Sequence record: NC_055721.1
DNA: 64,000 bases
From: Escherichia phage EcS1
Reading direction: 5' to 3' (one strand)
Part shown: piece by piece, positions 40,120 to 45,284 of the stretch
How positions within the stretch are numbered: position 1 is the stretch's first letter
Layout of the letters: each line of letters opens with the position of its first letter
Position numbers and translations under genes: made by a program
The notes under the pieces: model-generated
Database searches by the model: none
The model's input: the letters and a program-made list of their open reading frames with translations, nothing else
What the model was told of the DNA's origin: nothing

Positions 40120-40195
40120 TGGTGCTGAATGCAGGAATCGAACCCGCGACCTTCTCATTACAAGTGAGCTGCTCTACCTACTGAGCTAATTCAGC
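40120..40195 (-). tRNA. tRNA-Thr (anticodon UGU)
   Basis: 76 nt; perfect 7-bp acceptor stem, canonical D and T arms (TTCGATT), anticodon loop CTTGTAA, encoded CCA. Confidence 0.8.
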
Positions 40196-40199
40196 AATT

Positions 40200-40284
40200 T
40201 GGTGCATCGAGAGGGATTCGAACCCTCAATCCTCGCGGCGTGGCATTTTAAGTGCCATGTGTATACCAGTTCCACCATCGATGC
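40200..40284 (-). tRNA. tRNA-Leu (anticodon UAA)
   Basis: 85 nt class-II tRNA; anticodon arm TGGCA-CTTAAAA-TGCCA, T loop TTCGAAT, CCA encoded. Confidence 0.8.
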
Positions 40285-40288
40285 GAAT

Positions 40289-40364
40289 TGGTCGAGACAG
40301 TAGGGATCGAACCTACGACCTAGGACTTAGAAGGTCCTTGCTCTTCCGTCTGAGCTATGCCCCG
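40289..40364 (-). tRNA. tRNA-Arg (anticodon UCU)
   Basis: 76 nt; anticodon arm AGGAC-CTTCTAA-GTCCT, T loop TTCGATC, CCA encoded. Confidence 0.75.
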
Positions 40365-40537
40365 TCTTTGTATAAACGTTCTAAGTAAACATGCTCCATC
40401 GGTTTAACGATTTCGCCTTGTTTCAATAATTGTGTTTGAATAGGATTCAAATTATAAAATTTGATCACATCTCTGAGATCTTGTTCGCTATAATTAAAAG
40501 TTCCTACTTCTACTCCGATTTGCATAAGTATCCTTTT

Positions 40538-40624
40538 TGGAGCTAGGAGTGAGATTCGAACTCACGAAAGCATAACGCTACTGGATTTGCAATCCAGCGC
40601 CTTTGACCACTCGGCAATCCTAGC
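40538..40624 (-). tRNA. class-II tRNA with anticodon GCA (Ser/Tyr-type architecture, Cys anticodon)
   Basis: 87 nt; perfect acceptor stem GCTAGGA/TCCTAGC, D arm GCC-GAGTGGTCAAA-GGC, anticodon arm CTGGA-TTGCAAA-TCCAG, long variable arm, T loop TTCGAAT, CCA. Confidence 0.65.
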
Positions 40625-40755
40625 AAATGTTCAGGTGGGAGTCGAACCCACACGATTGAAGCCTCTCATCGGGTTACCTCTTACTCAGCTGGGTGCTTAA
40701 ACCAGCGTTTCAAACAGAGTCCGCCAACATGTCTACCGATTCCATCACTGAACAA
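40625..40755 (-). ncRNA. tRNA-like structured RNA, about 130 nt (possible stable-RNA analogue)
   Basis: canonical T arm GTGGG-TTCGACT-CCCAC and 7-bp acceptor pairing, but the ends are about 130 nt apart and no standard anticodon arm was found. Confidence 0.3.
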
Positions 40756-40758
40756 TTT

Positions 40759-40983
40759 TTACATATCTACTTGACAAAACCAGTTCATTTCAAAATATTC
40801 ATCAAAATGTAATGCAGGTTCTACTTGACAATTTTCTTCTAATAAGACCAAATTTCTTCTAACAATAGGGTCTAATGACGTGATGGTCAAAGCACTATCA
40901 TGATAGTAAATCAGAACACGAAGCGAATCTGTATCAACTAAATACCGAACATTCATATCAGGATGTTTGTAGAGGTTAATCAT
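40759..40983 (-). CDS. hypothetical protein
   Basis: 74-aa ORF. Confidence 0.35.
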   Translation of the reverse strand: MINLYKHPDMNVRYLVDTDSLRVLIYYHDSALTITSLDPIVRRNLVLLEENCQVEPALHFDEYFEMNWFCQVDM

Positions 40984-40989
40984 AACATT

Positions 40990-41436
40990 TTATCCTTGAA
41001 GCATTTCACGAACACGATAAAGATTAGAACAGAATTCTTGTTCAGTTAGAACAGTTTCATTCTTTTTATTCTTACCCATGCTATGAGTTAATGTTGAGTT
41101 ACGCGTAGCTAGGAGTGCTCTCTTGAATCCTTCATTCAAAGCCAGAGAATCATATGCTCGCTGAATTAAAGACGTATAGGCTATACTTTGACGTAAAATA
41201 GGGACACCTTTCCAGTACAACGTTTGGGTGCGCCACCAGTTCTTTTTCTTACCTTTGAACTTAGCTTTCTTACCAACTAATGTACAGACATGCTCTTGCA
41301 TTTCTACTGAAGAAAACTTCAATGATTGCAAGAAACCTTCCATTGATGCACACTGTACTCCATCAATTTCGAAAGCATGAGGAGCAAAGTTACTTAATGC
41401 ACAACTTGGGTACATTGAACCTGAACCAATATCCAT
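40990..41436 (-). CDS. NADAR (YbiA-like) domain protein
   Basis: 148 aa; SNFAPHAFEIDG...SMEGFLQSLKF, KRALLATRN, NLYRVREML align with remembered YbiA/NADAR blocks. Confidence 0.7.
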   Translation of the reverse strand: MDIGSGSMYPSCALSNFAPHAFEIDGVQCASMEGFLQSLKFSSVEMQEHVCTLVGKKAKFKGKKKNWWRTQTLYWKGVPILRQSIAYTSLIQRAYDSLALNEGFKRALLATRNSTLTHSMGKNKKNETVLTEQEFCSNLYRVREMLQG

Positions 41437-41527
41437 TATCCATTATTCCTTTGATGATAATAACAGCGTTTACATCGATACCAACCGAAATAATCTTTGT
41501 AGATTATTCTATTGCAGTTGGGACATT

Positions 41528-41782
41528 TCATGCTGGTTCTACCTCAGTCATTGTTGTCCGTTTCAGAACCACACAACCTTCTATTTCAGGGTCTTTCTTA
41601 ACCAGAACTCGTCCAGTAGGCGAAATAAGGCCAGTAATATGATTCAGAGCTTTAGCAGCATCATTGAAGCCATCAGCTTGCATAATCGTTCCGAATGAGA
41701 ACCCTTGATAGTGATTACTAAACTCGTAATAAGCGTATTCTTCACGAATAGGGCAATAAATCACATAATCAACATTCAGCAT
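41528..41782 (-). CDS. hypothetical protein
   Basis: 84-aa ORF. Confidence 0.35.
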   Translation of the reverse strand: MLNVDYVIYCPIREEYAYYEFSNHYQGFSFGTIMQADGFNDAAKALNHITGLISPTGRVLVKKDPEIEGCVVLKRTTMTEVEPA

Positions 41783-42114
41783 AAGTCACCTACACATTGG
41801 AGAGCACGATGGTGTGACCATATTTCTAAAGTCTTTTCGTTGGCTTTATTAATTCGACGAAGGTCATTTAAATTACCTTTAACATATAACCCAAGTTCAC
41901 TTAACAAATGATCGATAGTGAAATAAGAAATATCTCGCAGTGGAGCATAACGGAACTTAATGAAGTGCCATTCATCAAACTCGTTTTTGGTAAACGCATA
42001 ATCAGCATGCATCATGAGTTCGCGAATCGTTTCACGCATCAAAAAGACATTACCGTGATAAGAATCATTTATAGCAACAATATGTGGACCTACACCTAGA
42101 TAGATACGAGACAT
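41776..42114 (-). CDS. hypothetical protein
   Basis: 112-aa ORF. Confidence 0.45.
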   Translation of the reverse strand: MSRIYLGVGPHIVAINDSYHGNVFLMRETIRELMMHADYAFTKNEFDEWHFIKFRYAPLRDISYFTIDHLLSELGLYVKGNLNDLRRINKANEKTLEIWSHHRALQCVGDLC

Positions 42115-42324
42115 AATATTTTCCTCAGTCAGTTTATTCTACATCATATTCAACTACAAGCACTTCTTCATAATCTTCAGGATTAAGAGTTTTAATGTAG
42201 TCTTCTGCTTTTTCTTTACTCGATAGAATCTTTAATGGCTTTGAATATTCATCATATCCATATTCACAGTTAAACTCTGACATAACAACTGCGTATACTA
42301 TCATAATATTTTCCTCATTTGAAT

Positions 42325-42401
42325 TGGTGGCCCTTGTCGGAGTCTAACCGACCTTACACCAGTTATGAGCTGGGCACTTTCACACGAAAGTATAAAGGGC
42401 C
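42325..42401 (-). tRNA. tRNA-like element with CAU anticodon (Met or Ile2), atypical T loop
   Basis: 77 nt; perfect acceptor GGCCCTT/AAGGGCC, anticodon loop CTCATAA, T arm GTCGG-TTAGACT-CCGAC, CCA encoded; 5' end overlaps a terminator hairpin. Confidence 0.5.
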
Positions 42402-42434
42402 ATTATTAAAATATTTTTACTTTAATAATGGCCC
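42397..42434 (-). terminator. rho-independent terminator (14-bp perfect inverted repeat)
   Basis: GGGCCATTATTAAA ... TTTAATAATGGCCC with 10-nt loop; on minus strand followed by TTTATAC; downstream of 42459..42743. Confidence 0.55.
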
Positions 42435-42458
42435 TCTCCGAAGAGAGGACAGAGGGTA

Positions 42459-42743
42459 TTACTTACACATGAACTTAGCAACTTCATCGAAGCTGTTCAA
42501 GATGTAATAAGACTTAGGCGCACTGTATTCAGTAGGTTTAATAGTAATACGTACACGACCATGCAAGTCTTCAACTAATCCAACAACAGCACTTGAACGA
42601 ACAACAGCACGAGCAGTTGTAGGAATCTGACCGGTAGTCAGAGCTTGAAGTTCGGTGTCAATAAGGATTACAATACGTTCAGACATTTTAATTTCCATTT
42701 GTTGTTTCGATGTAGTAATAATAACATGATTATTTTGAAGCAT
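42459..42743 (-). CDS. hypothetical protein
   Basis: 94-aa ORF downstream of promoter copy 4. Confidence 0.4.
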   Translation of the reverse strand: MLQNNHVIITTSKQQMEIKMSERIVILIDTELQALTTGQIPTTARAVVRSSAVVGLVEDLHGRVRITIKPTEYSAPKSYYILNSFDEVAKFMCK

Positions 42744-42750
42744 AACCGTT
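42703..42750 (-). promoter_or_regulatory. early-type promoter-like element (repeat copy 4)
   Basis: minus strand ATGCTTCA...TGtTATTATTACT...CATCGAAACAA. Confidence 0.45.
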
Positions 42751-42801
42751 CAGAGACTAAAAAGCCCAGTACAAGATTTCTCTTGCCCGGGCGTCATTAT
42801 T

Positions 42802-42876
42802 TGGAGCAGCATATCGGACTCGAACCGATGTCGACTGGGTGGAAGCCAGTAATATTAACCACTATACGAATGCTGC
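42802..42876 (-). tRNA. tRNA-Gly (anticodon UCC)
   Basis: 75 nt; anticodon arm ACTGG-CTTCCAC-CCAGT, T arm ATCGG-TTCGAGT-CCGAT, CCA. Confidence 0.75.
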
Positions 42877-42877
42877 A

Positions 42878-42951
42878 TGGCAGGCCCTGTAGGAATCGAA
42901 CCCACGTCGCTGAGGTTGGAGCTCAGAATGATACCACTATACCAAGGACCC
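42878..42951 (-). tRNA. tRNA-Trp (anticodon CCA)
   Basis: 74 nt; anticodon arm CTGAG-CTCCAAC-CTCAG, T loop TTCGATT; D stem weak. Confidence 0.6.
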
Positions 42952-43262
42952 GTTGATTGTACGGAACGCCTGGATTCGAACCAGGTTACAAAGCAGTTGA
43001 CGCTCCTTTGTATTTTGTAAGGCCATCATCTCGACCATATCCGAACGTTTCGTCAAAAACGCTACTCGGCTTATGGCAAAGACAAATCCTCGAACCGATA
43101 ATTGGTGGGAGCTGTTGGTAACGATCCAACCTCTCGAGCTCTTCAGGCAAGCGCTAATCCGTCTCAGCTAAACTCCCAGATCCACAAGAACTTTACAAGC
43201 ATTGCGCTTAACCTTTTCAGGAAGTTAGGGTACTATTTCTAGTCTGTGGTTATCCCTATTTT
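42952..43262 (-). ncRNA. structured non-coding region inside tRNA cluster (tRNA-like fragments)
   Basis: contains a canonical T arm CCTGG-TTCGAAT-CCAGG at about 42967-42985 and several hairpins but no complete cloverleaf was found by eye. Confidence 0.25.
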
Positions 43263-43338
43263 TGGTGGGAATAGCTGGATTTGAACCAGCGACCTATCGC
43301 TTATCGGGCGAGTGCTCTACCAACTGAGCTATATTCCC
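43263..43338 (-). tRNA. tRNA-Ile (anticodon GAU)
   Basis: 76 nt; GGGAATA acceptor, GCTCAGTTGGTAGAGC D arm, anticodon loop CCGATAA, T loop TTCAAAT, CCA. Confidence 0.8.
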
Positions 43339-43344
43339 ATAATT

Positions 43345-43421
43345 TGGTCTCCATATAAGGATTTGAACCTTAGACCTCCTGGCCCCAAACCAGGCGCTCT
43401 ACCAAACTGAGCTACACGGAG
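43345..43421 (-). tRNA. tRNA-Pro (anticodon UGG)
   Basis: 77 nt; anticodon arm CCTGG-TTTGGGG-CCAGG, T loop TTCAAAT, CCA. Confidence 0.75.
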
Positions 43422-43422
43422 A

Positions 43423-43668
43423 TTAATTTATATCAAATATGGTGCCATCTTTCCACATCATTGCGAAAAGAGGTGAAACTTTTGTTAAACGGTGTGCAAC
43501 TTTAACTTGACGGCTAAAACCTTCAATTTGAGCACCATAACCATTTATATCTAATACAAGACCAATATGAACTTTGCCAATATCAGACATACCATTTGAA
43601 GGTAATCCAATCATGACATAATCGTTAACTTCGATTTGTTTACCATATTTGTCAAATAATATCTTCAT
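43423..43668 (-). CDS. hypothetical protein embedded in tRNA cluster
   Basis: 81-aa ORF between tRNA-Pro and tRNA-Ser. Confidence 0.35.
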   Translation of the reverse strand: MKILFDKYGKQIEVNDYVMIGLPSNGMSDIGKVHIGLVLDINGYGAQIEGFSRQVKVAHRLTKVSPLFAMMWKDGTIFDIN

Positions 43669-43693
43669 AATTATTTATTCACCATATTTTAAT

Positions 43694-43787
43694 TGGAGGA
43701 AGCTGTGAGATTTGAACTCACGGAACCTGTCCCCAGGACCTCTAGTTTTCAAGACTAGTGCAATAAACCAGACTCTGCCAAGCTTCC
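43694..43787 (-). tRNA. tRNA-Ser (anticodon UGA)
   Basis: 94 nt class-II; anticodon arm CTAGT-CTTGAAA-ACTAG, long variable arm, T loop TTCAAAT, CCA. Confidence 0.75.
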
Positions 43788-43791
43788 GAAT

Positions 43792-43867
43792 TGGGGTGAC
43801 CTGTGGAATTCGAATCCACGACTACGAGAATCACAATCTCGAGTTCTACCAACTGAACTAAGGCCAC
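43792..43867 (-). tRNA. tRNA-His (anticodon GUG)
   Basis: 76 nt; anticodon arm CGAGA-TTGTGAT-TCTCG, T loop TTCGAAT, discriminator C, CCA. Confidence 0.7.
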
Positions 43868-43967
43868 ATCAATATTCACTCAGCCACTTCGTGCGGACCT
43901 GTCTCGATATTACGTGTAGTGGATTAGCTAGTTCACACCACTATATCGTCTAGAATGAATATTAATT

Positions 43968-44043
43968 TGGCTAGAGCGCTTGGATTCGAACCAAGGAATA
44001 CCAGAATCAAAATCTGGTGTCGTAACCGCTTGACTACGCTCTA
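43968..44043 (-). tRNA. tRNA-Gln (anticodon UUG)
   Basis: 76 nt; anticodon arm CCAGA-TTTTGAT-TCTGG, T loop TTCGAAT, CCA. Confidence 0.75.
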
Positions 44044-44045
44044 AT

Positions 44046-44121
44046 TGGAGGCGAGTGATGGAATCGAACCATCGCGTAAAGGGATATGAACCCTTTATTC
44101 TACCACTGAAGTTAACTCGCT
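44046..44121 (-). tRNA. tRNA-Met (anticodon CAU), initiator-like
   Basis: 76 nt; anticodon stem ends in three consecutive G-C pairs (AAGGG/CCCTT), loop TTCATAT, position 1-72 unpaired (A-C), CCA. Confidence 0.65.
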
Positions 44122-44248
44122 ATTGTCCGGGTTCTCGAAGTAAAAACAAGTAGCTTGATGTAGAACACATAAAGTGGGAACAACTCACTTCATCTCCTAG
44201 CATTATTGTATGGAGACTCAAACTCATCTTCAAGAACTGCTTCGTATT

Positions 44249-44325
44249 TGGCGGACGTGCTTGGACTCGAACCAAGGACCTATCGCTTAACAGGCGACCG
44301 CTCTAACCAACTGAGCTACACATCC
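44249..44325 (-). tRNA. tRNA-Asn (anticodon GUU)
   Basis: 77 nt; anticodon loop CTGTTAA, T loop TTCGAGT, CCA. Confidence 0.75.
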
Positions 44326-44329
44326 AAAA

Positions 44330-44461
44330 TTTACTTTCAGGGTTACTCGAAGCTCTCAAACCTTCCGGAAAGTCGAATAAGCATCTCATCCTCTCAGAAT
44401 CCCGTGCACAGGAAAAATCTTTATTAGGAGGAGACTAAATCAATATAACCCTGAAAGTAAA
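44330..44461. repeat. 16-bp perfect inverted repeat flanking a 100-nt spacer
   Basis: TTTACTTTCAGGGTTA at 44330-44345 and TAACCCTGAAAGTAAA at 44446-44461. Confidence 0.8.
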
Positions 44462-44475
44462 CTTACTTTCGAATT

Positions 44476-44552
44476 TGGTGGGACATCATGGACTCGAACC
44501 ATGGACACCCGGATTAAAAGTCCGGTGCTCTAACCAACTGAGCTAATATCCC
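44476..44552 (-). tRNA. tRNA-Lys (anticodon UUU)
   Basis: 77 nt; anticodon arm CCGGA-CTTTTAA-TCCGG, T loop TTCGAGT, CCA. Confidence 0.8.
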
Positions 44553-45015
44553 ATAGATATTTATCTATAAATCTCTTAGCTTGAGTATGACTTATATTTA
44601 AACTTTTACTAAACTTGGTTAATGCACCTCGTTTAGTAAAATCTATTAAATTATAAGCTTCAATTCTAGAAGCAATTTCTTCTTCAGACAAAACCAAAGC
44701 ATGGTTTTCTGAAATCTTTTTACGAGATTCTGTTGTATGTGACATACCAGTAAAACCAAGAGTAGGTTTTAGTCTACCATTAGCTTTAGCGTCTTGTGCA
44801 TTTTGTTTATTTGTCGCACAATAAATGTTTTCTAATGAATAAGGACCTATATCGCCTTTACGACACATGCAATAATCCAAACTTGCTTTACCACGTAAAT
44901 GATATTTACCTGTTGATTTCCACCAAGTAAACCACTCATCAAAAGTTAGATTAAATTCAATACCACGAGCTTTGGCATGAACTTTTTGCATACGGTACTT
45001 TTCATAATCTTCCAT
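44530..45015 (-). CDS. homing-endonuclease-like protein (NUMOD3-like motif, C-terminal DNA-binding region)
   Basis: start set to ATG at 45013-45015 (MEDYEKY...); GFTGMSHTTESRKKISENH resembles NUMOD3; 3' end reads through the 5' part of tRNA-Lys. Confidence 0.4.
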   Translation of the reverse strand: MEDYEKYRMQKVHAKARGIEFNLTFDEWFTWWKSTGKYHLRGKASLDYCMCRKGDIGPYSLENIYCATNKQNAQDAKANGRLKPTLGFTGMSHTTESRKKISENHALVLSEEEIASRIEAYNLIDFTKRGALTKFSKSLNISHTQAKRFIDKYLWDISSVG

Positions 45016-45030
45016 ACAACTCTCACAAAT

Positions 45031-45106
45031 TGGCAGTGCCGACGGGATTCGAACCCGCATGGTCTCCCGTGACAGGGGAGTATATTACCAAGTCTACCAC
45101 GGCACT
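45031..45106 (-). tRNA. tRNA-Asp (anticodon GUC)
   Basis: 76 nt; anticodon arm CTCCC-CTGTCAC-GGGAG, T loop TTCGAAT, CCA. Confidence 0.75.
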
Positions 45107-45112
45107 ATTGTT

Positions 45113-45187
45113 TGGTACTCTGTAGGAGAATTGAACTCCTCTTCCCAGGTTGAAAACCTGGTGTCCTAACCGATAGACGAACAGAGC
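45113..45187 (-). tRNA. tRNA-Glu (anticodon UUC)
   Basis: 75 nt; D arm TCGTCTATCGGTTAGGACACC, anticodon arm CCAGG-TTTTCAA-CCTGG, CCA. Confidence 0.75.
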
Positions 45188-45195
45188 TAAGAATT

Positions 45196-45284
45196 TGGTG
45201 CACCGAGAAGGACTCGAACCTACGAAGCTCATTACAAGCAGGAGATTTACAGTCTCCACCCTTTGCCACTCGGGTCATCGATGC
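45196..45284 (-). tRNA. tRNA-Tyr (anticodon GUA)
   Basis: about 89 nt class-II; anticodon arm GGAGA-CTGTAAA-TCTCC, long variable arm, T loop TTCGAGT, CCA. Confidence 0.7.

Follow-up and report, generated by a model that had tools for sequence, protein, structure and literature searches.

A putative cysteine tRNA with a long variable arm in a T4-like phage and its counterparts in other phages and in Phycisphaerae

Reviews describe tRNA-Cys as a class I tRNA and reserve the long variable arm for tRNA-Leu, tRNA-Ser, bacterial tRNA-Tyr and tRNA-Sec. Synthetases of class I, CysRS among them, usually dock on the tRNA in such a way that its variable region points away from the enzyme. The only precedent for a long-armed tRNA-Cys in the literature searched is of the 8/4 selC* type, which CysRS cysteinylates and which serves in translation (Mukai et al. 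2017, PMC5389517). In selC* tRNAs A51a is bulged and the acceptor and anticodon stems are long, as in tRNA-Sec; their genes are linked to selB*/cysS* in anaerobic bacteria. Allo-tRNAs and nematode nev-tRNAs also combine a long arm with the anticodon of an amino acid normally carried on a class I tRNA. These keep the identity of their scaffold (Ser or Leu) while the anticodon is free, and allo-tRNAs, which have 8/4 or 9/3 helices and a long D stem with a tetraloop, carry 35 different anticodons. The literature searched (full text, with few subscription journals) yielded no description of 7/5 long-armed tRNA-Cys from phages or Planctomycetes, and automatic pipelines routinely annotate long-armed genes as tRNA-Cys.

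The window, that is, the whole stretch of 64,000 nucleotides analysed here, belongs to a T4-like phage (Tevenvirinae, nearest Winklervirus) and has a G+C content of 37.7%. In GenBank it comes closest to Winklervirus phages that infect Serratia, Erwinia and Kosakonia; across roughly 60% of a 20-kb stretch they are about 82% identical to it. A cluster of 18 tRNA genes extends from 40120 to 45284; 17 are recognized by ARAGORN and the 18th, a tRNA-Phe, by Rfam only. On the minus strand at 40538-40624, ARAGORN calls an 87-nt tRNA-Cys(gca) with the anticodon at position 35. The features of this gene and of its downstream neighbors are as follows.

40538..40624, minus strand: tRNA-Cys(GCA), 87 nt, folding as a 7/5 cloverleaf; long variable arm, CCA encoded (ARAGORN, Rfam, fold, orthologues)
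40618..40624, minus strand: 5' strand of the acceptor stem, GCUAGGA (sequence; pairing across phage copies)
Within 40618..40624 and 40542..40548, minus strand: acceptor pairs G1-C72, C2-G71, U3-A70, A4-U69, G5-C68, G6-C67 and A7-U66 (sequence)
40599..40615, minus strand: D arm GCC-GAGUGGUCAAA-GGC, with a 3-bp stem, G13.A22, G15 and G18G19 (sequence)
40581..40597, minus strand: anticodon arm CUGGA UUGCAAA UCCAG (sequence)
40588..40590, minus strand: anticodon GCA, predicted to read UGC and, by wobble, UGU (ARAGORN)
40566..40580, minus strand: variable arm UAGCGUUAUGCUUUC, 15 nt, with a 4-bp stem AGCG/UGCU and a 3-nt loop (manual parse)
40566..40580, minus strand: flanks of the variable arm, a single unpaired base 5' and three 3', the final one (C48) being able to pair with G15
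40549..40565, minus strand: T arm GUGAG UUCGAAU CUCAC (sequence)
40542..40548, minus strand: 3' strand of the acceptor stem, UCCUAGC (sequence)
40541, minus strand: discriminator U73 (sequence)
40538..40540, minus strand: encoded 3' CCA (sequence)
40120..40364, minus strand: tRNA-Arg(UCU), tRNA-Leu(UAA) and tRNA-Thr(UGU), co-oriented, downstream of tRNA-Cys (ARAGORN, Rfam)

The first part of the RNA reads GCUAGGA UU GCC-GAGUGGUCAAA-GGC G CUGGA UUGCAAA UCCAG and the second UAGCGUUAUGCUUUC GUGAG UUCGAAU CUCAC UCCUAGC U CCA, with an acceptor/T helix of 7/5 and a D loop of 11 nt. The Rfam tRNA model RF00005 matches it end to end (model positions 1-71) with 59.1 bits against a gathering threshold of 29 (E = 3e-11), a score in the middle of the range of the window's 17 other tRNAs. 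Folding of this sequence alone returns the cloverleaf at -31.1 kcal/mol (z = -3.05). A sequence-only reading of the DNA had described a class-II-type cloverleaf with a Cys anticodon, and this structural claim stands: the 7-bp acceptor stem, the 3-bp D stem, the long variable arm, the canonical T loop and the encoded CCA are all present, and GCA lies in the loop UUGCAAA, where ARAGORN also places the anticodon. That reading had further counted all these parts as class II hallmarks, which is right for the long variable arm and wrong for the D arm. A 3-bp D stem with G13.A22 and a long D loop does not single out Ser, Tyr or Leu tRNAs, because ordinary short-armed phage tRNA-Cys have the same D arm; among the matches listed from IMG/VR, G13.A22 occurs in 77 of 104 such genes and a 17-nt D arm in 71 of 104. 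Judged by its sequence, the only unusual trait for a cysteine tRNA is the long variable arm.

Comparison with the described tRNA types leads to the same trait. The gene resembles class I tRNA-Cys (E. coli cysT, T5) in U73, the loop UUGCAAA, G1-C72, the 7/5 helix and the 3-bp D stem with a purine-purine 13:22, and the short-armed tRNA-Cys of T5 (76 nt) shares its D-arm and T-arm features. It differs in a variable region of 15 nt with a hairpin, whereas class I tRNA-Cys have 4-6 nt; a 15-nt arm also lies outside the class I variable loop of 4-5 nt. With selC* tRNA-Cys it has the long arm, U73 and GCA in common, but its helix is plain 7/5, its acceptor and T stems are fully paired, and it is found in a phage tRNA cluster. 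Since selC*, the one tested precedent, is cysteinylated, a long arm is compatible with CysRS. In contrast to allo-tRNAs and nev-tRNAs, the anticodon and the discriminator of the window family are fixed to cysteine, and the 7/5 helix, 3-bp D stem and 11-nt D loop set the window gene apart from the allo-tRNA fold.

The major determinants of bacterial CysRS are U73 and GCA; G2-C71 and C3-G70 are minor ones, a tertiary core is listed too, and the atypical G15:G48 found in E. coli tRNA-Cys counts, for the E. coli enzyme, as a strong determinant (Giege & Eriani 2023, PMC9976931). The window gene has both GCA and U73, the latter a discriminator on which the sequence-only reading was silent. Unlike E. 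coli tRNA-Cys, it has C2-G71 and U3-A70 in place of G2-C71 and C3-G70, and the E. coli-type core (G15:G48, A13:A22) is replaced by G15:C48 and G13.A22. Lacking G15:G48, the tRNA is possibly a poor substrate in an enterobacterial host. That core is not universal, because most short-armed phage tRNA-Cys also have G15/C48 (79 of 104 among the matches listed).

Bacterial TyrRS depends on A73, G34 and U35, of which A73 and U35 are the two critical determinants, and bacterial LeuRS on A73 (Giege & Eriani 2023, PMC9976931). Only G34 is present in the window gene, where U73 replaces the A73 of both sets and C35 replaces U35. For bacterial SerRS the determinants are G73, C72, G2-C71, R4-Y69, C11-G24, a large arm and G30-C40, and G2-C71 is absolutely conserved in bacterial tRNA-Ser (Giege & Eriani 2023, PMC9976931). 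This set bears on the proposal, made in the sequence-only reading, that SerRS would recognize the long arm and that the tRNA would place serine at some cysteine codons as a missense tRNA. Besides the long arm, C72, A4-U69 (R4-Y69), C11-G24 and G30-C40 are indeed present, although these are features common to many tRNAs, and the T arm is identical at 16 of 17 positions to that of the window's tRNA-Ser(UGA). Absent are G73 and G2-C71. Taken alone, U73 would be no block to SerRS in these hosts, because the phage's own tRNA-Ser has U73.

The arm is long, but its geometry differs from that of most tRNA-Ser. In the same loci, tRNA-Ser arms measure 16-23 nt, mostly with stems of 5-8 bp, and have 1/1 flanks in 16 of 24 genes, while the arms of tRNA-Tyr measure 11-17 nt and, in 8 of 11 genes, leave one base unpaired on the 5' side and three on the 3' side. 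The variable arm of the window gene (15 nt, 4 bp, flanks 1/3) has the geometry of tRNA-Tyr, which SerRS rejects. Himeno and colleagues reportedly obtained, in 1990, some serine acceptance in vitro when the 3-bp arm of tRNA-Tyr from E. coli was lengthened by one base pair; the arm in the window has 4 bp, as against those 3 bp. Crude isotype HMMs, built at the nucleotide level from the tRNA-Leu, tRNA-Ser and tRNA-Tyr genes of the examined loci with the anticodon masked, give most of the long-armed Cys genes a slightly better score for tRNA-Ser than for tRNA-Tyr, and allo-tRNAs are a precedent for Ser-type tRNAs with non-Ser anticodons. From the identity nucleotides as a whole, cysteine would be by far the most likely identity of the window tRNA.

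The gene has orthologues outside its nearest relatives. By blastn, a full-length tRNA-Cys with 84-86% identity is found in 30 records, nearly all from Karamvirus and most annotated as tRNA-Cys; their hosts are Enterobacter in 24 cases, with Klebsiella, Cronobacter and one each of Aeromonas and Erwinia making up the rest. In the three loci examined, those of PG7, vB_EluP_RZH and Pet-CM3-4 (tRNA features are annotated in two), the gene lies between tRNA-Arg and tRNA-Leu, and GCA and U73 are kept. The anticodon stem is CUGGA/UCCAG in the window and GCGGA/UCCGC in Karamvirus, so that pairs 27:43 and 28:42 have changed in a compensatory manner, as has the variable-arm stem (AGC/GCU in the window, GGG/CCC in Karamvirus). 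Compensatory stem changes together with the kept GCA and U73 rule out a recent single-base accident. Two suspicions attached to the sequence-only reading are thereby answered: every orthologue examined carries GCA and none GCU or UGA, as a single-base variant of such orthologues would imply, and a decayed copy is contradicted by stems kept through compensatory change and by the same architecture in 116 distinct genes (among the matches listed).

These orthologues also weigh on the broader possibility of a non-functional relic, a mutated copy of a tRNA-Tyr (GUA to GCA) or a tRNA-Ser (GCU to GCA). The anticodon GCA is one substitution from each, and the scaffold is like that of tRNA-Tyr and tRNA-Ser. 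A tRNA-Cys is moreover absent from the Winklervirus relatives, whose tRNA set otherwise nearly matches that of the window, and it is dispensable in this lineage since the window's closest relatives do without any. On the other hand, intact tRNA-Tyr and tRNA-Ser genes with clearly different sequences are already present in the window, every stem is maintained by compensatory change at 84-86% identity, the discriminator is U in all copies and not the A or G of the supposed parents, and with Rfam the gene scores much as the window's other tRNAs do. We regard a relic as extremely improbable.

To place the gene in a wider family, contigs were scanned with the motif GGATTGCAAATCC-N15-30-GTTCGAATC, corresponding to the tRNA-Cys anticodon arm followed by the T-loop core, with a variable region of 9-24 nt required. 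In IMG/VR it is found in 31 viral contigs, which range from small fragments to jumbo phages of 280-500 kb. The bacterial scan returned at least 120 contigs, and among the matches listed nearly all are Phycisphaerae/Planctomycetota MAGs, including chromosome-level assemblies; beyond the matches listed, bacteria besides Phycisphaerae may carry a long-armed tRNA-Cys as well. ARAGORN assigns 149 of 157 candidate stretches (the bacterial ones among the matches listed) to tRNA-Cys(gca), with lengths of 81-92 nt. Pseudomonas phage D6 is a second cultured carrier. Variable regions in this family measure 12-18 nt, and those of short-armed tRNA-Cys in IMG/VR only 4-6 nt (at least 120 matches; among the matches listed). 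No tRNA-Cys with a variable region of 7 or 9-11 nt is among the matches listed, although the patterns allowed those lengths, so that the lengths appear bimodal among the matches listed, with 8 nt falling outside both the short-armed and the long-armed search pattern. Two Phycisphaerae contigs (L117, 1659-1732, and L139, 3611-3684) contain a 74-nt tRNA-Cys that combines the acceptor, D and T arms of the long-armed copies with a variable loop of 5 nt, and in L139 the long- and short-armed genes are 200 nt apart.

The structure of these tRNAs is, by the covariation across copies, under selection. In 24 distinct phage copies, 98.9% of the stem cells form a standard pair, compared with 68.5% after shuffling (none of 500 shuffles reaches the observed value) and 28-43% after sliding by 1-3 columns. 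Cells changed on both sides number 133, against 34 in shuffled and 11-29 in slid alignments. Each of the seven acceptor pairs is formed in 24 of 24 phage copies, by between 2 and 5 kinds of pair. No weight attaches to the inner three pairs of the anticodon stem or to the T loop with its closing pair, all of which the search pattern fixed. Position 73 was left free by that pattern; a U stands there in all 24 phage and all 92 bacterial long-armed tRNA-Cys, or 116/116 distinct copies (among the matches listed). G2-C71 occurs in 89 of 92 Phycisphaerae copies (among the matches listed), and both G2-C71 and C3-G70 are variable across the phage copies, with position 2:71 being CG in 10, GC in 7, UA in 6 and AU in 1.

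This pattern of conservation bears on serine as well. A mixed 2:71 pair, C2-G71 in the window, is at odds with the G2-C71 of tRNA-Ser, and the combination of GCA and U73 is invariant in the 116 copies (among the matches listed), unlike the 35 anticodons of the allo-tRNAs; a tRNA charged by SerRS would gain nothing from keeping its anticodon constant. Phycisphaerae, in addition, encode the long-armed form chromosomally beside short-armed paralogues of the same body. A serine-inserting missense tRNA is therefore very unlikely in our judgement: the gene has the CysRS set of U73 and GCA, lacks G73 and G2-C71, and bears an arm of tRNA-Tyr geometry. It is best annotated as tRNA-Cys, and a recoding device seems unlikely. 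The explanation that we favor is that the long arm is probably no sign of Ser, Tyr or Leu identity and is instead, with good likelihood, an inherited trait of a distinct tRNA-Cys lineage, chromosomal in Phycisphaerae and scattered among phages.

Where the scaffold came from is less clear-cut. Bacterial tRNA-Tyr shares with the window gene the 3-bp D stem, G13.A22, the GAGYGGNCAAA D loop, a similar arm length and the flanks of one unpaired base 5' and three 3' (...YUUC), and differs from it in A73 and U35, where the window has U73 and C35. C35 removes the G34-U35 context of queuosine tRNAs. For two viral long-armed tRNA-Cys (from L019 and L032), blastn gives co-linear matches of 76-79% identity to phage tRNA-Tyr genes. 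Derivation from a tRNA-Tyr by a U35C anticodon switch together with A73U is nevertheless not established by the HMM, D-arm profile or identity comparisons. The D-arm profile scores the window copy at 20.4 bits for class I Cys, 19.2 for Ser, 16.6 for Tyr and -4.3 for Leu. Counted across nt 8-26 (the D region) plus the T arm, the window gene is identical to the class I tRNA-Cys of T5 at 29/37 positions, to tRNA-Ser at 29/39, to tRNA-Tyr at 26/37 and to E. coli tRNA-Cys at 17/37. Given short-armed tRNA-Cys with the same D arm and Phycisphaerae paralogues with the same body, a hairpin gained or lost within the tRNA-Cys lineage would be no less likely an origin than a remoulded Tyr or Ser gene. A host-derived gene was rejected, as blastn of the window tRNA-Cys gave no match in 5,426 E. 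coli genomes; E. coli tRNA-Cys itself has no close match in enterobacterial phages.

From the gene, its fold, conservation, covariation, identity nucleotides and family, we infer expression, charging with cysteine and decoding along the following lines. The tRNA-Cys would be transcribed from the minus strand together with the neighboring tRNAs and small ORFs, and the transcript trimmed to the 87-nt RNA, its CCA being part of the gene. In the tRNA cluster, scans for promoters and terminators gave results no better than shuffled sequence. The RNA would fold into a normal 7/5 L-shape with an extra 4-bp hairpin in the variable region, and host CysRS would charge it with cysteine through U73 and G34-C35-A36. 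The charged tRNA would then read UGC and UGU, adding to or replacing the host's single tRNA-Cys during infection, and the other 17 phage tRNAs would play the same part for their amino acids. Cysteine codons account for 0.97% of the 13,318 codons in the 52 long ORFs of the window (UGU 108, UGC 21), with a UGU share of 84%. We consider the gene to be, probably, a functional cysteine tRNA of a T4-like phage, charged by host CysRS and reading UGC/UGU, and most plausibly one of a nearly complete set of phage tRNAs that keeps translation going late in infection.

A tRNA-shaped RNA charged poorly or not at all, with a mainly non-decoding role as a nuclease decoy or inhibitor or as a nuclease-resistant spare, is the alternative to such decoding. 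The missing G15:G48 core, which is favored by E. coli CysRS, and the lack of a tRNA-Cys in the closest relatives would fit it, and T5, apparently like this phage, encodes tRNA-like stable RNAs beside its tRNAs. Phage tRNAs can also defeat tRNA-cleaving defences, and some have been suggested to act as inhibitors when over-expressed (PMC12409363). The anticodon loop of the window family has 7 nt with U33 and A37, and GCA, U73, CCA, G18G19 and the T loop are all conserved, which speaks against a non-decoding role, as does the chromosomal gene of the same form in a bacterial clade. We know of no Cys-specific anticodon nuclease, nor of any defence targeting tRNA-Cys, in enterobacteria. A mainly non-decoding role is accordingly, in our estimate, unlikely.

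A different view, rather unlikely when its parts are taken jointly, is that the arm is not neutral and that 7/5 long-armed tRNA-Cys form an unrecognized further class II family. The phage would then have a distinct cysteine adaptor that remains functional when the host tRNA-Cys is depleted or is cleaved by a host defence or by the phage; or both CysRS and SerRS would charge the tRNA, in a deliberate Cys/Ser ambiguity. An extra benefit of the long arm, such as escape from a nuclease, is speculation. If the arm is not neutral, the long-armed tRNA-Asn, tRNA-Thr, tRNA-Lys, tRNA-His and tRNA-Ile(UAU) of related phage loci could reflect the same strategy.

Should the cysteine identity be correct, CysRS would tolerate a class II scaffold, in a family that is kept by cultured phages (Enterobacter phage PG7, Pseudomonas phage D6) and across Phycisphaerae. 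The family would offer a natural test case for the gain or loss of an arm without a change of amino-acid identity, and a scaffold for tRNA engineering, including orthogonality to arm-reading enzymes. Its interest is mainly for tRNA specialists; with respect to phage coding it is ordinary.

Several other long-form tRNAs were observed in phage loci. In two loci from the window's closest relatives (L004, 2774-2857; L005, 2764-2847), an 84-nt long-armed tRNA-Asn(GUU) with G73 occupies the Lys-Asn-Met slot, and its counterpart in the window is an ordinary 77-nt tRNA-Asn at 44249-44325. By blastn this long tRNA-Asn, mostly annotated as tRNA-Asn, occurs in 645 records of phages, among them T5-like, rV5-like, Klebsiella T4-like and Karamvirus phages. 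The tRNA-Asn of T5 was considered as a tested long-armed phage tRNA (PARIS study, PMC12409363), a link that fails because T5's own tRNA-Asn and tRNA-Cys are short-armed. About 20 long tRNA-Ile(UAU) of 90-95 nt are present in phage contigs, many with a D arm like that of tRNA-Sec or allo-tRNAs and a CCAGAUUAGCG motif in the arm. Other long forms are tRNA-Lys(UUU) and tRNA-His(GUG), both of 87 nt, and tRNA-Thr(UGU) of 82-84 nt; examples of the long-form isoacceptors in IMG/VR are L162 5908-5999, L188 3509-3600, L014 12382-12468, L029 8887-8973 and L008 1201-1284. Several viral contigs with a long-armed tRNA-Cys also encode a CUA (amber) tRNA, called 'tRNA-Pyl' by ARAGORN (e.g. L006 2647-2720).

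Within the window, the tRNA-Phe(GAA) at 43106-43177 (minus strand) scores 36 bits with Rfam and is 98% identical to an annotated tRNA-Phe of Erwinia phage Gravdalen; it was missed by ARAGORN probably because of its odd T loop, GGUUGG-AUCGUUA-CCAAC. The tRNA-Ser(UGA) at 43694-43787 (minus strand) has U73 and not the usual bacterial G73, and so have the orthologues from Gravdalen, X20 and PG7. A 56-aa ORF (40355-40525, minus strand) with a Shine-Dalgarno-like AAGGA occupies the space from tRNA-Cys to tRNA-Arg; its stop codon overlaps the first bases of tRNA-Arg, and no PHROG family was found for it.

Three nucleotides upstream of tRNA-Cys lies a tRNA-like element of about 123 nt (40628-40750, minus strand). 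Its parts are a 7-bp helix resembling an acceptor stem (UGUUCAG/CUGAACA), a Leu-like D arm, a canonical T arm and about 60 nt in place of the anticodon and variable arms. ARAGORN makes no call here, Rfam gives only a 17-nt match to the tmRNA end, and the fold is no better than that of shuffled sequences. In Winklervirus phages the element is 88-98% identical, above its flanks, and unannotated. Compared with Gravdalen, the tRNA-Cys and the 56-aa ORF look inserted between this element and tRNA-Arg. It presumably recalls the species 1/2 RNAs of T4, and a comparable 'tRNA-like stable RNA with unknown functions' is annotated in the T5 record.
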